Shown piece after piece: positions 14,404-52,359 of a stretch of 64,000 bases of DNA. The translations under genes and the position numbers were made by a program. Position 1 is the stretch's first letter. Every line of letters begins with the position of its first letter. The stretch covers positions 17,796,001-17,860,000 of the forward strand of contig CM075988.1 of the NCBI GenBank assembly GCA_038087875.1, written 5' to 3'. A model generated the notes under the pieces. The model was not told the origin of the DNA, made no database searches, and saw only the letters and a program-made list of their open reading frames with translations. The DNA comes from Malacoraja senta (Eukaryota).

Positions 14404-14420
14404 TGCTTGCTTTGTCATAG
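14404..14420 (+). CDS. PPP2R1B: PP2A scaffold subunit A (beta-like), terminal coding exon (V)LALS-stop
   Basis: Acceptor ctaatctttttttcctAG ends at 14403. G|TG CTT GCT TTG TCA TAG gives VLALS*, matching the VLALA/VLSLA C-terminus of vertebrate A subunits. Confidence 0.92.
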
Positions 14421-15079: not shown

Positions 15080-15085
15080 AATAAA
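15080..15085 (+). terminator. proximal candidate polyadenylation signal AATAAA
   Basis: Exact hexamer within the 3' UTR; the downstream element is weak. Confidence 0.4.
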
Positions 15086-15502
15086 TGTAAATGAAAGTCT
15101 CATCTTGACCATACTCATTTCAATGACTTAACAGCAGTGCCAACGAATGTTGTGGCTACCTGTAGAATGTAGAACAATACAGTTCTTTAGTTGTAACCTA
15201 TAGTTCTGTAGTGTTCCCCACTCTTGGGCTGCTTTGCTTTATCAGGTTTGTCAGTTTTGCTCTGAAGCTGCTTGATCCCCACCCTGAACAGGTCCACGTT
15301 TGGATATTGCCATTCCAGTAAGAGTTGGTCAGGGTTGGAATCCTGCTTCAACTTTGCAAATCATGTAATTTAATGTTTAAATTGCTTTCAACATGGACCT
15401 TTTCAAACAAATTTAGATCGTGTTAGATTGATTTACCTGTTTATCAGTGGATGTTTTGCCTCTAATTTGTATATTTTACATTATTGTTTTGACTGATTCC
15501 CA

Positions 15503-19305: not shown

Positions 19306-19505
19306 NNNNNNNNNNNNNNNNNNNNNNNNNNNNNNNNNNNNNNNNNNNNNNNNNNNNNNNNNNNNNNNNNNNNNNNNNNNNNNNNNNNNNNNNNNNNNNN
19401 NNNNNNNNNNNNNNNNNNNNNNNNNNNNNNNNNNNNNNNNNNNNNNNNNNNNNNNNNNNNNNNNNNNNNNNNNNNNNNNNNNNNNNNNNNNNNNNNNNNN
19501 NNNNN
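19306..19505. other. Assembly gap of 200 N
   Basis: Run of N. A round length suggests a placeholder of unknown true size. Confidence 0.99.
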
Positions 19506-22706: not shown

Positions 22707-23014
22707 GGTGTGGCATGGTGAAGCAGTGGTGGAGTTGCTGCCTGACAGCGCCAGAGACCCGGGTTCAATCCTGACTACGGGTGCTGACTGAACGGAGTTT
22801 GTACGTTCTCCCCGTGGCTACGTGGCTTTTCTCCGGGTGCTCCAGTTTTCTCCCACACTCCAAAGATGTACAGGTTTGTAGATTAATTGGCTTTGGTAAA
22901 GATTGTAAATTGCCCCTAGTATGTAGGATGGTGCTAGTGTACGGGGATCGCTGGTTGGCGCAGACCCGGTGGGCTGAAGGGCCTGTTTCGCGCTGTATCT
23001 CTGAACTAAACTAA
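22707..23014 (+). mobile_element. HE1-like V-SINE, full length
   Basis: tRNA head, V-domain, CR1-like tail gggctgaagggcctgtttc and (CTAAA)n. Confidence 0.9.
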
Positions 23015-23275
23015 ACGAATGGATTTGCACTAAGATTCAGATACTGGCGACTTCACAGATCAGAAGGCTAGTGAGTGACCATTGGATAGTGAAAAGTGAC
23101 TCCCTGAGTGTGTAGCAGTGGGAACAGATTAGAGCAAGACTCTATCAGGATTTATTCGGCAATGTTGTCGTTTTTCTGATGTTTGTAGTTTAATAATGTT
23201 GACTGAAGCATAAACATTGGCCAGACACCATGAGAAATTCCTCTCATTCAGGATTGGAGAAGGGTCCCGACCCAC

Positions 23276-23587
23276 GGGCACAGTGGCGCAGCAATACAGT
23301 TGCTGCCTCACAGCACCAGAGACCCAGGTTCGATCCTGACTACGGGTGCTGTCTGTACGGAGTTTGTACATTCTCCCCATGTTCTGCGTGGGTTTTCTCC
23401 GGGTGCTCCGGTTTCCTCCCACACTCCAAAGATGTACAGGTTTGTAGATATAATGACTTCTGTAAATTGTAAATTGTCCCTAGTGTGTGTCGGATAGTGT
23501 TCCTGTACGGGGATCGCTGGTCAGTGCAGACTCGGTGCACCGACGGGCCTGTTTCCACACTGAATCGCTAAACTAAACTCAACTAAA
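23276..23587 (+). mobile_element. HE1-like V-SINE, full length, inserted into a Penelope-type repeat
   Basis: Flanked on the left by gaagggtcccgaccc and on the right by aaacgtcacc, the two halves of the host motif. Confidence 0.9.
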
Positions 23588-24859
23588 ACGTCACCTACAG
23601 ATGCTGCCTGACCCGTTGAGTAGTCCAGCACTTTGTGCTTTGTTCTAGTGTGGGATTTCTTTTATCCAATTAACCCAGCAGAGAGAGACAAAAAGGATGG
23701 AGTAACTCAAGCGGGTCAGGCAGCATCTCTGGAGAAAAGGAATAGGCGATGATTCGGATTGAAATCTTCTGCAGACTGAGATTCAGGGGAGAGGGAAACT
23801 AGAGGTATGAAATGGTTCAGAACAAATCAGAGCTGGTTTGGCCATGAGACTGTGGAGGAGGTGTCCAACAATGATGTGACTTCACGGCATGAACTTCTTG
23901 GCCGGAGATGTGTAATTCCAGGGATCATCCAAGAGTAGTTAATAGTTTCTCAAGTCTGACCCTTGTAAACTTTCAGCAAGAATGCATCTGGTTAAAGATT
24001 AATCTGTCTTGTTGCACAGAACAAGGCATTGTGCTTCTGTTAATGATGTCTTGTGTAAAACTGTCCCAACACTCATTACAATAGAAGGCACCATAGTGTA
24101 TGTTTTATAAGGATGTTGCCAGGACTCGAGGGCCTGTGCTAAACAGGGGGGTGGGACAGGTTACGACTTTACTCCTTGGAGTGCAGGAGGCTGAGGATTA
24201 ATCTTATTGAGGTGTATAGGATCATGAGGGGAATAGAGAGGGTAAATGCACAATATGTTACCCCGGGTGTGGGAATGAAGGGGACATAGGTTTAAGGTGA
24301 GAGAGGAAAGATTTAATAGGAACCTGAGGGGCAACATTCACTTGAAGGGTGGGGGTATATGGAAGGAGCTGCCAGAGGAGGTGTTTGAGGCAGATACTAT
24401 AACAGCTTTTAAAAGACACATAGTTACATGGATAGGAAAAGTGTAGAGAGATTTGGGCCAAATGCTTGCATCTGTTATTTTTAAGCTCCACCCATACTGC
24501 GTCAGTGGACGAACCCTCCGTAGTGCTCTCCGAGTGCCGCCATGACAGTCTCCATGATCAGCAGCGCTTCTCCTGCACCTCGTTGCCCCCCCCCCCCCCC
24601 CCGATCACGTAAAAACCCTGGAACATTGAGCTGCGAGTCGCGTGGCCACAACATCATAGTCCCAAGCCTTGATCCAGGCTCGAAGTTCATCTGCTTTCCC
24701 CACAGTAGCCCTTCCATTGAACTAAACACACTTCAGCCCACATTCCTTCTCCTCTCCCTACCTGTCCTTCCTTTGAGTCTTACCGATCCTAACCTCTACC
24801 TTCCCATCACTCCTTCCAAGTTCTGACCTTCTACTCTGGTTCCCATCCCATTGCCTCTC

Positions 24860-25130
24860 TAGTTTAGTCAAGTCGTCAAGTGAAGTCACTTTTATTTCTG
24901 TAGCACATTTAAAAAACAACTCTCGTTGACCAAAGTGCTTTACATTGGTAGAGGTACTAATGTTATACAACATTGGTTCATAGATTAAGTACATACATTG
25001 ATACATACATATAGCCCTCCCTCAGAGGACGTCAAGAAAGGCTTGAGAGTAAAGATGAATTTTAAGTCTCGACTTAAAAGAGTCGATGGAGGGGGCAGTT
25101 CTGATGGGAAGAGCAATACTGTTCCACAGT
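24860..25130 (-). mobile_element. LINE (L2-like) 3' end
   Basis: (AAGTC)n-type tail followed by tttatttctgtagcacatttaaaa...aaagtgctttaca, a reversed L2-type terminus. Confidence 0.55.
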
Positions 25131-25774
25131 CCACAGTCCACAGTTTAAATGCCCCTGAGTAACATTTCGAAAAACAACTCCCACTTGCAGAGTTTTGAAC
25201 AGAAGAAAAACATTGGATAATTCACAGCAGTGTGGCACAAATTACAACCACACTCTCTGTTGCTCTAATACTATATTCTGCACTCTGCTTAATTTATATA
25301 TGAGCAATTCTCTTCATTTTTAAAGCATACAAATTAAAGAAATGTTTAAAATGTTGTCAAGCTGGAAAGGGAAGAGAAGATTTACAAGGATGATGCCAGG
25401 ACTAGAGGGTCTGAGCTATACGGAGAGTAGGCTGGGACTCTATTCCTTGGAGCCCAGGAAGATACGATACAATACGATACGATACGATAGAACTTTATTC
25501 ATCCCCAGAGGGCCTGAGGGGAGATCTTATAGAAATATATAAGATTACTAGACTAAGTGGGACCCGTTGGGTCCCATGTTCACACGGGAGGGCTGGTCCC
25601 CCAATGCAATATTCCACCTTTCCACCAATTCCAATATTGGTGGCCAGTGGGGGGGCTTTCTGGAGCGCTGGTATGGGTTCTTGGGGTGGCAGCTCAGTCC
25701 CTCAAGCCTGATGTGCTGGCAGCTCACTCACGACTGGTGGGCTGGCAGTTGACTCATGGCTATTTCTTGAAATT

Positions 25775-26130
25775 CCATTTCAAGCAGGGGGCAAGGCCAC
25801 CAAATTCAAATCCATTTTCCTACCATTTCAAGCAGGGTGCAAGGCCACCAAATTCAAGTGCAGTTTCTTACCACTTCGAGATGTGTGCAAGGCCACCAAA
25901 TTCATGCACTTTCCTACCACTTCAAGCAGGGTGCAAGGCCACCGAATTCAAGTGCAGTTTCATACCACTTCAAGCAGGGTGCAAGGCCACCAAAATCAAG
26001 TGCAGTTTCATACCATTTCAAGCAGTGTGCAAGGCCACCAAATTCAAATGCAGCATCATACCATTTCATGCAGGGTGCAACGCCACCACATTCAAATGCA
26101 GTTTCATACCATTTCAAGCAGGGTGAAACC
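25775..26130. repeat. 48-bp tandem repeat, about 7.5 copies, inside the Helitron
   Basis: Unit TTCAAGCAGGGTGCAAGGCCACCAAATTCAAGTGCAGTTTCATACCAY, e.g. starting at 25921 and 25969. Confidence 0.95.
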
Positions 26131-26155
26131 ACCATAAAACCACACAAAACACCAA

Positions 26156-26280
26156 ACTCACAGTTCAGTAGACATTCAGTGTGTTCAGTTGATTCACAGC
26201 TCAGACAGTCGTGACCTCTCCCTCCCCATCATGCAGAGACTGAGCCACACCCACACTTTCAGGTTTTATAACCCCTCCCC
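26156..26280 (-). promoter_or_regulatory. Putative Pol II core promoter, first exon and donor inside the Helitron (downstream copy)
   Basis: Minus strand: TATAAAA starting at 26270, initiator TCAGTCT with A at 26241 (29 nt from the TATA) and donor GTGAGT at 26161-26156. Confidence 0.45.
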
Positions 26281-26496
26281 CACCCACCGGAAATGATGTG
26301 GACTTCATGGCGTGATTGACAGGAGAGAGATTCTCAACACTTTTTAAACACCAATAACACTTTTAGTTTTCATTGATGGGAAGAATCCTCTGCACCTGCT
26401 GAGCAGAGGGAGACGGAGTAAGATGGCCTAAAATCTCAGTCATAAGTGGTAGCTTTTTTATCTAAAATCAATATACAGTGCAAACAGGAAGTTACC

Positions 26497-26640
26497 CAAA
26501 GCACCCAAACCACCATTTGCAGTAGTGCCTTTTAACTTCAAGCCAAAGCACCCAAACCACCATTTGCAGTAGTGCCTTTTAACTTCAACCCAAACCCCCC
26601 AAACAACCATTTGCAGACAGTGCCTTTTCACTTCAAACCA
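26497..26640. repeat. ~47-bp tandem repeat, 3 copies, inside the Helitron
   Basis: Unit CAAAGCACCCAAACCACCATTTGCAGTAGTGCCTTTTAACTTCAAGC. Confidence 0.9.
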
Positions 26641-26673
26641 ACCATATTTTCATTTTCAAACCACATTAAGGAC

Positions 26674-26790
26674 ACTCACAGTTGAGTAGACATGTGTTCA
26701 GTGTTATTCAGAGCTCAGAGAGACGTGACCTCTTCCTCCATCTTGCAGAGACTGAGTGAGGCACACCACTTCCTGGTTTTATAGCCCCTC
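26674..26790 (-). promoter_or_regulatory. Putative Pol II core promoter, first exon and donor inside the Helitron (upstream copy)
   Basis: Minus strand: TATAAAA starting at 26783, CAGGAAGTG, initiator TCAGTCT with A at 26753 (30 nt from the TATA), AAGATGG and donor GTGAGT at 26679-26674. Confidence 0.5.
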
Positions 26791-27775
26791 CCCCTCCCTC
26801 CAGCAGGGGCAGCAGAGAGAATGGCAAATTATTTAAAAACATTAATATCTCTCTTTCATCGATGGGAAAAATCCTCTGGTCCAGGAAGGCGGAGAGGGGC
26901 TCTGAGCGAGGTGGCCAAAAATGACGGCCTTAGGTGGTGGCGTTCTCTCGGAAATCACACCACAGCGAGCCAAAAGCGGTCAAGATCAGACTTTTAGTAA
27001 TATAGATGAGAGGAATAGATCGGGTAGATGCACAGTCTCTTGTCCAGAGTAGGTGTATCGAGGACCAGAGTACATAGGTTTAAGGTGAAGGGGAAAAGAT
27101 TTAATAGGAATCTGAGGGATAACTTTTTCACACAAAGGATGGTGGGTGTATGGAACAATCTGCCAGAGGAGGTAGTTGAGGCAGCGACGATCCCAACATT
27201 TAAGAAGCAGTCAGACAGGTACATGGATAGGACACGCTCAGAGTGATATAGACAAAATGCTGGCAGATGGGACTAGTGTCGCTGGGACATGTTGGCCATT
27301 GTGGGAAAGTTGGGCCGAAGGGCCTGTTTCCATGCTGTATCACTCTATAACTCTATGACTCTAGTGAAAGGGCGATCAGTGTTGTAGTCTGATGTTGCCG
27401 TGTTGGGCCTGCTCTGGCCTGGGTCTGTCCTGCCTTGTTAATCCACCTGATGCATGTGTGAGTTCACTGATGAAAGTGCTGGTGTATGCACCATTATGTT
27501 TACGGATCCCACCAGGGAGAGGATTCCTTTGGAAGATTGCTGTGAGATCTTGGTGGCAGCGCGGATGATGTGATTGGTTCAGTGGCAGGAGTGGTGGCCA
27601 GGTTCCTGTTGATGTGGTGCTCTGGGGTTTTAGAGTCACAAGGAACTGCAGATGCTGGTTTACCAAAAAAAAGACATAAAGTGCTGGAGTAACTCAGCGG
27701 GTCAGGCAGCATCTCTGGAGAACATGGGTAGATGATGTTTTGGGTCGGGACCCTTAAGACTGAAGTGATTGAATA

Positions 27776-28089
27776 GGGCCGCTCAGTGGCGTAGCGGTAG
27801 AGCTACTCTCTTACAGCACCAGAGACCCGGGTTCGATCCCGACAACGGGTGCTGTCTGTACAGAGTTTCTACGTTCTCCCTGTAACCGCATGGGTTTTCT
27901 CCGAGATTTTCGGTTTCCTCCCACACTCCAAAGATGTACAGGTTTGTAGGTTAATTGGCTAAAGTATAGAAATAATGTAAAAATTGTCCCTTGTGTGTAG
28001 GATAAGTGTTAATGTGCGGGGATCGCTGGTCAGTGCGGACTCGGTGGGCCGAAAGGGCCTGTTTCCGCGCTGTATCTCTAAAACTAAAA
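27776..28089 (+). mobile_element. HE1-like V-SINE, full length
   Basis: A and B boxes, V-domain and CR1-like tail. Confidence 0.9.
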
Positions 28090-31000
28090 GCTTAAAAAAA
28101 ATAACACGTCACCTACCCATGTTCTCCAGAGATAATGAAATAATGCAGTAATATGTGCTGAGTGTGAAGCCCGGTGAACCTAGTGAAATGCAGCAGTATT
28201 GTAGTGTGGAAATGGCTGCCCTTCCCACAAACCTGGACAAGCCCATCACTCCTCAACACTCAACATCCACTTTGACCATTGACCCAATTCATCCATGCCG
28301 CCAAGTTGCCTAACCGAGCTAGTCCCACTGGCCTGTCCCTGCTCTGTGTCCCTCCAAACCTTTCCAATCCAGTACCTCTCAAAATGTGGTGTTTGTACCT
28401 CTCTCTGCCACCTCCTCCGGCAGCTCATTCCGTGTACCCACACAGCCTCTGTGTGGAAAAAGTTGCCACTCAGGTCAGGTCTCCTTTAAATCTTTCTTCT
28501 CACCTTAAAGCCATGCCCCCCCCCCCCCCCCCAGTTTTAGAATCCCTAACCGTGGCTATTCAGTTTATCAAAGCCACTTATGATTTGACATCTCTATGAT
28601 GTCGCTCCTCAACCACATTTCTGACAAAGCAGCATTCCCCCAGTTAGCACTGCACCACGTACAACCATTTTACAGGGAGGTCTGGGGCAACTAACTGGGG
28701 AGCAGTGGTCACAAACATGTTCAGAGCACAGCTTGTTGGAGAGGAATGTGAAGCCGTCAGTTAGAGATCTCTGAGTCTTGCAGGTTGTATGTGTCAACAC
28801 TTCAGGAAAAGAGGGTGAAAAGTTGCAAAATAAAATATTTCCAGTCAATGCCAAGCAAAGGCAATCCCTTTGTCTGCTAAATGCCGTGACTGACATGGGA
28901 ACGAATAGGACTGGATTGATTACGTAATTTTAATCCTAAAAATGTGATTTTTTTTTTTCAGACAAGACAAGAATCTATCATGTGTTTCATGAACCTCATG
29001 ATAGGCTGGAGTGGAAGAGAATTGAATTGTGTGGCTCTGATGGGAAGTCTGTCTGTTAATGGGATACAATGGGTTTCCCGGAGAGTTTGCTGCCCTGGCT
29101 GCTGTGGTGAATCAGTGTCAATTAAAAGATAGTGGAGGAACAGAATGAAGTGTGAGCAGGGGTCTGGTCCAGTGGGAACTTGCCTTTATTACACTGTGTG
29201 GCCATGACGCACATCAAATCTCTGAGTCTGCACAGTTATTGAGCCAGTAAAAGACTTAATGGGAAAATCAGCTTCCCTGCGTCCAAGCGATCCAAGGTCA
29301 AAACTGAAAGTGTTGCTTAGCCATACAGGACTATTGCGCACTCTTAATAGGTTGCTGGCTGCAGTCTATTTCTCTTCACCTAAAATTGTATCCGAATTTA
29401 GGGGCGAGATTTAATATAATGCTCCTTCCTCAGTCACTGGTGAATGAAGGAGAATTATAATATGTGTACACAGTATTGATTAGATCTGATTAGATTAGAT
29501 AAAATTTGAAGTCCGAAACGTCACCCATTCCTTCTCCCCAGAGATGCTGCCTGTCCCGCTGAGTTACTCCAGCATTTTGTGTCTATCCTCGATTTAAACC
29601 AGCATCTGCAGTTCTGTTTTATACTGATTAGATCACGTTCCTTCCCCCTAACGTACTGTAGCTCCCTGCTGCCCTGTCGGTATTGATATTATCCCTGCAA
29701 TGTCACGCACCAGATAAAGGGTTGTGTCCTTGTGTCACTTTGCCATGTCGGAGGATCTGTTTGAAGTAATCAGTCAACGAATCCAACATCAATCTTTGAT
29801 TAAAACACTGACACATTGTGCGAATCACATCTATAAATTATAATATTTTTATGCCATATTTCCTTTAGTTTAGAAGTGGGACAATTATTATATTTTTGAA
29901 CAACAGCTGACGTCATTGGATCATGAGTGTGAATGGAATTTTTAGGGATTCTACATCTGATTGGCAACCATTTCTCACCGCACTTCTCCAACAAGGCTGT
30001 TAACTCTTGGATTACTTAAAACATGCAGTTAAATATGTTTCACCAATAAAAACTGAACGTTGTACCAAACTATCATTCTATGACGTGGCTGGCCCATTGG
30101 CTCTGACCTACTGGGCTCATGGAGCCATGGAGAGAATGGGCTGCAAGGTGGGACCTCCATGCTCTGATCATGTTGAGGAGAAGAACTCGCTCTGTAAATT
30201 AACCCAAGGGACAGGCTCAGTCTGAAGCAGGGTCTCGGCCCAAAATGTTGCCTTCTCTCCAGAGATGCTGCCTGTCGTGCTGAGTCTATCTTTGGTGTAA
30301 ACCAGCATTTGCAGTTCCTTCCTTCAACAAGGGACAGGCTTGCCTGGGGAACATGCAGGCTGAAATGAAAAAACATAAAATTGCTCTAGTCATTCCATTC
30401 AGTTTTATTCATTCATCATGGTGGCATCTCCAGCAAGGCCAACATTGATTTCCCTTCCTGAAGTGTGCTTGAAGAGAAGGTTGCTATTGACTAGTGCAAC
30501 CCATCTGAGAAGCACACTCCTCCAGGGTGGTGTTGATGAGAATTTATGGATTTATATCCCATGAATACCAAGCGACATAGATATATTTGCAATTTGTGAT
30601 GGTGTGTGACAAAACTGTCTCAGGTAGACAAAAATGCTGGAGAAACTCAGCAGGTGAGGCAGCATCTATGGAGAGAAGGAATAGGCGATGTTTCGGGTCT
30701 CGACCGGACAGGAATGGTGGATACAGATCTTGCAGGCAGAGGAGATTGGTTTAGATTAGCATCACCGTCAACAAAGACGTGGAAGGCCAATGGACCCGTT
30801 CATTTTATGTAAATGGATACAACATTTTTTTAAACTTTCACCTTGGCCAAACCAGTGATTGCAATTTAGCTGATTATCCGAAAGGTTGGACGGGCTTGGA
30901 TTTGGAGCATCAGAGGTTGGGAGACACGATGGAAGTGTACACAAGAGGCACAGATAAGGTAGACAATCACACCTTTTTCCCACGGTGGAAACATCCAACA

Positions 31001-32866: not shown

Positions 32867-33057
32867 GGCCTGAGCTTCGGGCCTGAGCTTCGGGCCTGAG
32901 CTTTGGGCCTGTGCTTTGGGCTGAGCTTTAGGCCTGTGCTTTGGGCCTGAGCTTTGGGCCTGAGCTTTGAGCCTGAGCTTTGGGCCTGTGCTTTGGGCCT
33001 GAGCTTCGGGCCTGAACTTCGAGCCTGAGCTTTGGGCCTGAGCTTTGGGCCTGAGCT
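32867..33057. repeat. 13-bp minisatellite, about 15 copies
   Basis: Unit GGCCTGAGCTTYG, with GTGCT and GAACT variants. Confidence 0.95.
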
Positions 33058-51628: not shown

Positions 51629-52359
51629 GCAGAATACAGTGCTATTCCCAATAGAAGATGTGGGGGGAAAGTATATTATATGGAGGGTGGGTGGGTGCCT
51701 GGAACATGCTGCCAGGGCTAGTGATGGATACAGATACAAAAGTGGTATTGAAGCTTTTAGATAGGCAGATGGATATGCAGGGAATGGTGTAATATCTGAA
51801 GTTTGGAGCAATATATATACATTTTCTGTTCCTATAATTTTGTCCCACACACCCTACCATCAGTATCCCTGTTATACACAAACTACAGGAGTAACTCAGC
51901 GAGACAGGTAGCATCTCTGGAGAGAAGGAATGGATGACGTTTCTGGTCGAGGCCCTTCAGAACGTCATCCATTCCTGCTCTCAAGAGATGCTGTCTGTCT
52001 TGCTGAGTTACTCCAGCATTTTGTTTCTGTCATCGATTTAAACTTGCTTCTGCAGTGCCTTCCTGCACAATATTCCTCAGTTATCTGCGACTGAAGCCCT
52101 TAACTAGTGCTTTATATTGGAGCATATCCATGTCCTCTAGTGATGCTGTCTGACCCGCTGAGTTATTCCAGCACTTTGTGTTCTGCACAAGACTCCAGCA
52201 AATGCAGTTCGTGTCTCCTCTTTATAAACTTGAGATTGACGCGTCATCTCTTACTGATCCCTTTCATCTCGACCTGTAACTTCAGGCGCAGAAGTGCAAA
52301 CAAGGTCCCCTCTAGATTGTAGCCGTCGAGGAGAGATGCTGCATGTGGGACTCTCTCAC

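Follow-up and report, generated by a model that had tools for sequence, protein, structure and literature searches.

The stretch of DNA analysed here, a 64-kb window, contains a single full copy of a Helitron, which is inserted on the minus strand into a LINE that we take, from the look of the repeats, to be of the CR1 type (Table 1). The element starts with the canonical Helitron 5′ dinucleotide TC (27006-27005, minus strand), a terminus supported by 209 RNA reads that diverge into unlike flanks behind 27007, and it closes with CTAG (25551-25548) behind a subterminal hairpin, the stem of which stops 10 nt before the Helitron end (z -2.0; 7 of 200 shuffles fold as well). Insertion occurred at A|T without target duplication, the flanks abutting in paralogous CR1-type copies at 24170 and 49975. 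None of the nine Helitron ORFs holds a Rep/helicase family, all matches being below the curated cut-offs, and the element is thus non-autonomous. Read from its 5′ end it consists of left end A, a TATA-exon-donor module (A), a 47-bp array, left end B, a second TATA-exon-donor module (B), a 48-bp array and the 3′ end; neither AATAAA nor ATTAAA occurs inside it, and Rfam gave 0 matches across 23000-30000. Each of six units of the 48-bp array (25841-26079, minus strand) carries TGCRCNC, which we take to be a metal-response core, and these make up 6 of the 21 minus-strand matches in the window.

Table 1. Coordinates in the window of the Helitron, its parts and its insertion site
Feature	Position	Strand	Remarks
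Host CR1-type LINE fragment, right of insertion	27007..27359	+	rejoins left fragment
Non-autonomous chimeric Helitron, 1,459 bp	25548..27006	-	TC/CTAG ends, duplication-free empty site, no RepHel family
5′ terminal 29 nt (TC start), absent from unit B	26978..27006	-	
Left end of unit A, ends in G-rich tract (26800-26784) adjoining TATA	26784..26977	-	67-74% identical to left end B
TATA box A (TATAAAA)	26777..26783	-	
ETS-type CAGGAAGTG after TATA box A	26775-26767	-	
Inr A TCAGTCT	26755-26749	-	A at 26753, 30 nt from first T of TATA
Predicted first exon A, 74 nt	26680..26753	-	66/73 aligned positions shared with exon B
Predicted splice donor A, ACT|GTGAGT	26674..26679	-	sequence motif
Tandem array of 47-bp units (3.1 units) within the predicted unit A intron; A-B junction at array end	26496..26641	-	
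Left end of unit B: sister-subfamily Helitron 5′ end without first ~29 nt	26271..26492	-	reads/contigs continue into Helitron terminus
TATA box B (TATAAAA)	26264..26270	-	
Inr B TCAGTCT	26243-26237	-	A at 26241, 29 nt from first T of TATA
Predicted first exon B, 80 nt	26162..26241	-	
Predicted splice donor B, ACT|GTGAGT	26156..26161	-	sequence motif
Tandem array of 48-bp units (7.4 units) within the predicted unit B intron	25775..26125	-	
3′ end: 8-bp stem hairpin (25576-25558), then CTAG	25548..25576	-	folding vs shuffles
Host CR1-type LINE fragment, left of insertion	25352..25547	+	contains GATAC repeat insert and minus-strand AATAAA at 25499

The upstream gene has HEAT-repeat exons and ends at 14420; we refer to it as PPP2R1B, the name used in an earlier note, which does not set the gene apart from its paralogue. 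A 200-base assembly gap (19306-19505) lies between this gene and the Helitron, and a 13-bp tandem array of 14.8 units is found at 32867-33057. A minus-strand host gene around the Helitron was considered, the usual neighbour presumably being SIK2, and nothing was recognised by eye among the minus-strand ORFs of at least 45 codons.

The earlier note had placed a TATA box, an initiator and a splice donor in each of two copies within the Helitron, and all of these motifs lie at the minus-strand sites that it gave. TATA box A is 224 nt away from the terminus and TATA box B about 252 nt. In its strict form the TATA-Inr-donor pattern occurs at two places in the window, both of them the Helitron modules. 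A relaxed form is expected at 0.23 matches per 64-kb window (60 first-order Markov simulations), from which the chance of one match within the 1.46-kb Helitron is, by scaling, about 0.005, the two module copies counting as one event in this estimate because they are homologous; the real window holds four matches at three places (26783, 26270 and 51817/51819). The module is more than chance, and both of its copies come from one origin. The relaxed match at 51817-51819 (minus strand) lies outside the Helitron and is within chance expectation. Elsewhere, a pattern scan for the module gave 0 matches in viral contigs and 0 in prokaryote genomes; five metagenome-contig loci that it returned match over just 19-24 bases and were taken as chance.

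Further motifs surround this core. The ETS-type and YY1-like motifs announced for one copy are present in so far as CAGGAAGTG is found at 26775 and AAGATGG at 26744, but the latter is followed by AG and not by the CG that we take to belong to the YY1 consensus. Two more ETS-type sites lie in left end B at 26287 and 26484 (plus strand), the ETS label being an assumption. Left end B also holds a TALE (Pbx-Prep) DECA motif (26313-26322, plus strand), the only one in the window under the definition of PMC6023610, and left end A is without it through an indel. Both exons close with an ATG and four codons (M-S-T-Q/E) before a phase-2 donor (26693-26680 and 26175-26162, minus strand), the ATG standing at 60/74 in exon A and at 66/80 in exon B, an arrangement that may reflect homology alone. 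A coding role of the first ATG was rejected, as its frame closes after 8 codons in A, the frames differ between the units and the indels measure 2, 1 and 5 nt; structured RNA was likewise discarded, since for the two exons 198 and 197 of the 200 shuffles fold better (exon A z +1.9).

The two units are unevenly conserved along their length. Between A and B the stretch from TATA to donor is identical at 95/105 positions against 136/185 in the left end (Fisher p 4e-4), and the next 100 intron bases match at 60/81, near that aligner's shuffle level of 69%. In a MAFFT alignment the corresponding counts are 94/108, 129/192 and 68/137, and permutation of this alignment (20,000 permutations) gives a p of 0.0025 for so good a window arising anywhere in it. 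The module is accordingly 87-90% identical between the units versus 67-74% for the left end; the conserved block begins at the G-tract/TATA and stops just after the donor, with the exon body (66/73) as conserved as the motifs. A comparison of motifs with their flanks, the positions for which came from 40 of 449 rows, placed 0 of 38 difference positions in the motifs (p 0.17) and 5 in the two cores (p 0.05), neither value being significant. That the module is conserved above the level of the left end suggests that it was a genuine promoter with its first exon and was under selection while the subfamilies diverged; recombination between subfamilies could give the same core identity.

The presence of two modules has a structural explanation. 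The earlier note described a block of roughly 270-300 bp that occurs twice, and the duplication and divergence of the copies are borne out, but the homology is longer and starts from the Helitron left end, unit A spanning about 26977-26655 and unit B about 26492-26140. The doubling is not an internal cassette duplication: two related Helitron left ends are joined head to tail. Sequence matching 26456-26492 continues into a 30-letter consensus that equals window positions 26978-27007 at 27/30 letters (by eye), the continuation behind 26492 into the Helitron terminus is seen in 63 RNA reads of run X23, 107 contigs of run X10 and 11 contigs of run X15, and a joint from 26478 to 26974 occurs in 4/4 runs. 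Because sequence of the unit B type runs into a Helitron 5′ terminus elsewhere, unit B is a left end from a sister subfamily that has its own terminus, and an internal left end that is found elsewhere with its own terminus is what distinguishes a compound Helitron. In the present copy unit B has lost ~29 terminal bases and adjoins the 47-bp array of unit A.

Other joins are found at the same array. One of them runs from 26493 to 26574 and keeps 13 more bases of the terminus. In a second doubled form, observed in run X10 (26824 to 26534; summed depth 1,334), the 47-bp array runs into an A-type unit at a point 41 nt above TATA, most of the left end being missing. Since several different joins exist at the 47-bp array, doubling has happened more than once. 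As to the mechanism, we infer that rolling-circle copying begun at terminus A would have run from the 47-bp array of A into a B-type element and would have ended at the hairpin and CTAG of B, be it by end bypass, by template switch or by a deletion between neighbours. The loss of the 29 terminal nucleotides of B would leave a single start, such that the chimera could move as a unit.

The family to which this copy belongs is plainly high-copy, with the proviso that summed depth is no copy number. Run X10 contains 16,449 contigs matching the Helitron among 17,122,991, mostly 90-99% alike, and the flanks behind the terminus agree poorly (0.41), as befits a dispersed multi-copy element. At least half of 93 sampled words of the family are found in 14 of 23 listed runs, which represent 10 organism codes and 10 study codes; none of the listed runs holding sampled family words is an RNA run, runs X18-X20 (a small share) were left out of the counts, and X15 and X17 consist of contigs of guessed kind that are uninformative on starts or strand. 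Depth at 26429-26442 is about 1% of the peak, which marks the exact B variant as a minority form in organism G. A lone remnant of the family's 5′ terminal 29 nt is located at 15082-15110 (plus strand), about 660 bp past the PPP2R1B stop codon. It matches the window terminus at 22/29 positions, its last 17 nt equal a family variant from the runs (by eye; expectation about 1e-4) and the sequence that follows is unlike the Helitron.

Transcription was assessed in X23, one raw polyA run from organism G of which about 6% was read, where 1,477 of 7,335,232 records match the Helitron. With sense defined as first-mate-plus and the strandedness of the library assumed, the ratio of sense to antisense depth is 1.27 over left end A, 0.56 over left end B, 2.26 over exon A and 2.83 over exon B, and the shift between strands starts upstream of each Inr. 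Across donor A the sense depth falls from 90 to 59, against an antisense change from 51 to 48 and flat X10 contigs; at donor B the drop coincides with an edge bin in which X10 declines as well. Both strands are covered, 83% of the matching reads run on into unlike sequence, and X23 has no listed position at which RNA molecules begin or end in numbers. Neither donor is among the six X23 loose ends listed (smallest 52 reads; 24 of 716 listed in all) or the 15 of 81 joints listed, a listing in which a junction carried by fewer than 52 reads would escape notice. Just upstream of Inr A the sense depth reaches 160 and so exceeds the 93 over exon A, partly owing to one diverged locus (55 reads, agreement 0.95), and this excess, together with the 209 reads that cross the 5′ terminus, points to read-through from host transcripts. 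The opposite strand dominates over left end B (26280-26489, ratio 0.3-0.95) and the balance flips at TATA B, as might happen with a divergent promoter or with a small number of host transcripts. An internal splice from donor A to an acceptor-like site at 26399/26396 was rejected, being absent among the 15 of 81 joints listed, and most copies differ at 26399.

With somewhat more confidence than doubt we read the Helitron as two related left ends joined head to tail, in which the module probably represents the promoter and first exon that the family's transposase gene had ancestrally; each copy would be a potential, mostly idle exon-trap promoter. Its identity as the Helitron's own promoter is likely from its position and conservation, and the G-tract and the ETS-type and TALE DECA sites lying upstream of TATA count in favour of a promoter; PMC12001565 describes a 5′ UTR and factor-binding peaks at the 5′ end of an autonomous Xenopus Helitron. 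The module would once have driven RepHel, with the array in the first intron, and selection on it is easiest to explain on that assumption. Either module's transcript, meeting no polyA signal inside the Helitron, would end in or splice into host DNA. The earlier suggestion of a mobile donor of promoter and first exon holds for the promoter-like anatomy, which is real and more conserved than its flanks, and for the high copy number of the family, but the doubling stems from joined left ends and the module may just as well be the Helitron's own promoter as a captured host one. Capture, by which the same chimeric Helitron would have taken up a host gene's promoter, first exon and donor and dispersed them as a mobile promoter, as with NUBPL in HelibatN3, strikes us as possible though rather doubtful. 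The module's textbook Pol II anatomy, with its TALE and ETS-type sites and its G-tract, would suit it, the terminal codons of both exons could be a host N-terminus, the highest copy numbers among bat Helitrons belong to those that captured promoters and first exons (PMC4224331), and HelibatN3 has a promoter, six codons and a donor (PMC4778049). A passenger should nevertheless have diverged at the pace of the left end, whereas the module is better conserved, and at 90% identity a shared ATG would be expected anyway.

We hold it improbable that the module is a dead relic, with all RNA being host read-through and the identity of the core owed to recombination or gene conversion between subfamilies instead of selection. 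Such a relic would account for the missing pile-up of starts, the lack of a donor junction among those listed, the coverage of both strands and the many reads that leave the element or cross its terminus, and the family does recombine often, as the different junctions at the 47-bp array attest; however, the conserved block is bounded by the G-tract/TATA and by a point just past the donor, sense reads are in excess over both exons, and the junctions were judged from the listed part (15 of 81 joints). In another reading, a Helitron family presumably of cartilaginous fishes, a label taken from the look of the repeats, would stack its promoter-exon-donor module repeatedly by joining left ends at the intronic minisatellite, as in the A-B form and the array-to-A form, because transcription from the module would aid movement, and thousands of copies would be live alternative promoters splicing into host genes in at least 10 species, a scenario that we regard as quite unlikely. 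Finally, the module was said to point antisense towards the 3′ end of PPP2R1B. The orientation is as described, but the link is weak: 11,128 bp separate the Helitron end from the stop codon, seven minus-strand AATAAA signals lie between (25499, 24896, 23156, 21434, 20808, 20082 and 18128), the first of them 49 nt past the Helitron, and just 26 of the 1,477 matching X23 reads are at least 99% alike to this copy. An antisense role for PPP2R1B is unlikely, and we give hardly any credence to the idea that this very copy makes an antisense transcript regulating the gene.

No description of this Helitron family was found in the literature listings, and it may be annotated in repeat libraries. How vertebrate Helitron transposases are expressed is little understood, and two diverged left ends that keep the same block mark a likely promoter. 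The chimera, moreover, is a clean example of new Helitron subfamilies arising by end joining. Similar mobile promoters are already known from bats, and by analogy the family could seed promoters as bat HelibatN3 does; if its copies fire and splice, the family would join the bat example as a second vertebrate case of exon-trap promoters spread by Helitrons.

The closest parallel is HelibatN3 of Myotis bats, which carries the promoter, first exon and splice donor of NUBPL, exon-traps in cells and gives rise to transcripts in bats (PMC4778049, PMC4224331); the promoters of 15 genes have been amplified to 4,690 copies (PMC4224331). Like HelibatN3, the present element is non-autonomous, high in copy number and equipped behind its left end with a promoter, a short first exon and a donor, and would in principle be able to splice into downstream host exons. 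In HelibatN3, however, host capture is proven and exon-trapping was demonstrated in cells, whereas here the module is a predicted one with a TATA-type promoter and is present twice, from two subfamilies. Compound Helitrons are also in print, namely HelibatN539 (PMC4224331) and the combined Helitrons of silkworm and maize (PMC3789558), and they share with our element one Helitron's 5′ end together with the 3′ end of another and a second left end inside; in contrast to them, the inner left end here lacks just the terminal ~29 nt, a minisatellite is the site of the join, and the two parts are not separated by host DNA. With Heli2Xen, Helitron-N2_XT and Helitron-N1_DR, the comparison being one of descriptions (PMC12001565), the element shares non-autonomous copies that are largely tandem arrays, and there the arrays also border the autonomous copy; their units measure 166 bp, whereas those of the present Helitron measure 47 and 48 bp and each array stands right after a donor.
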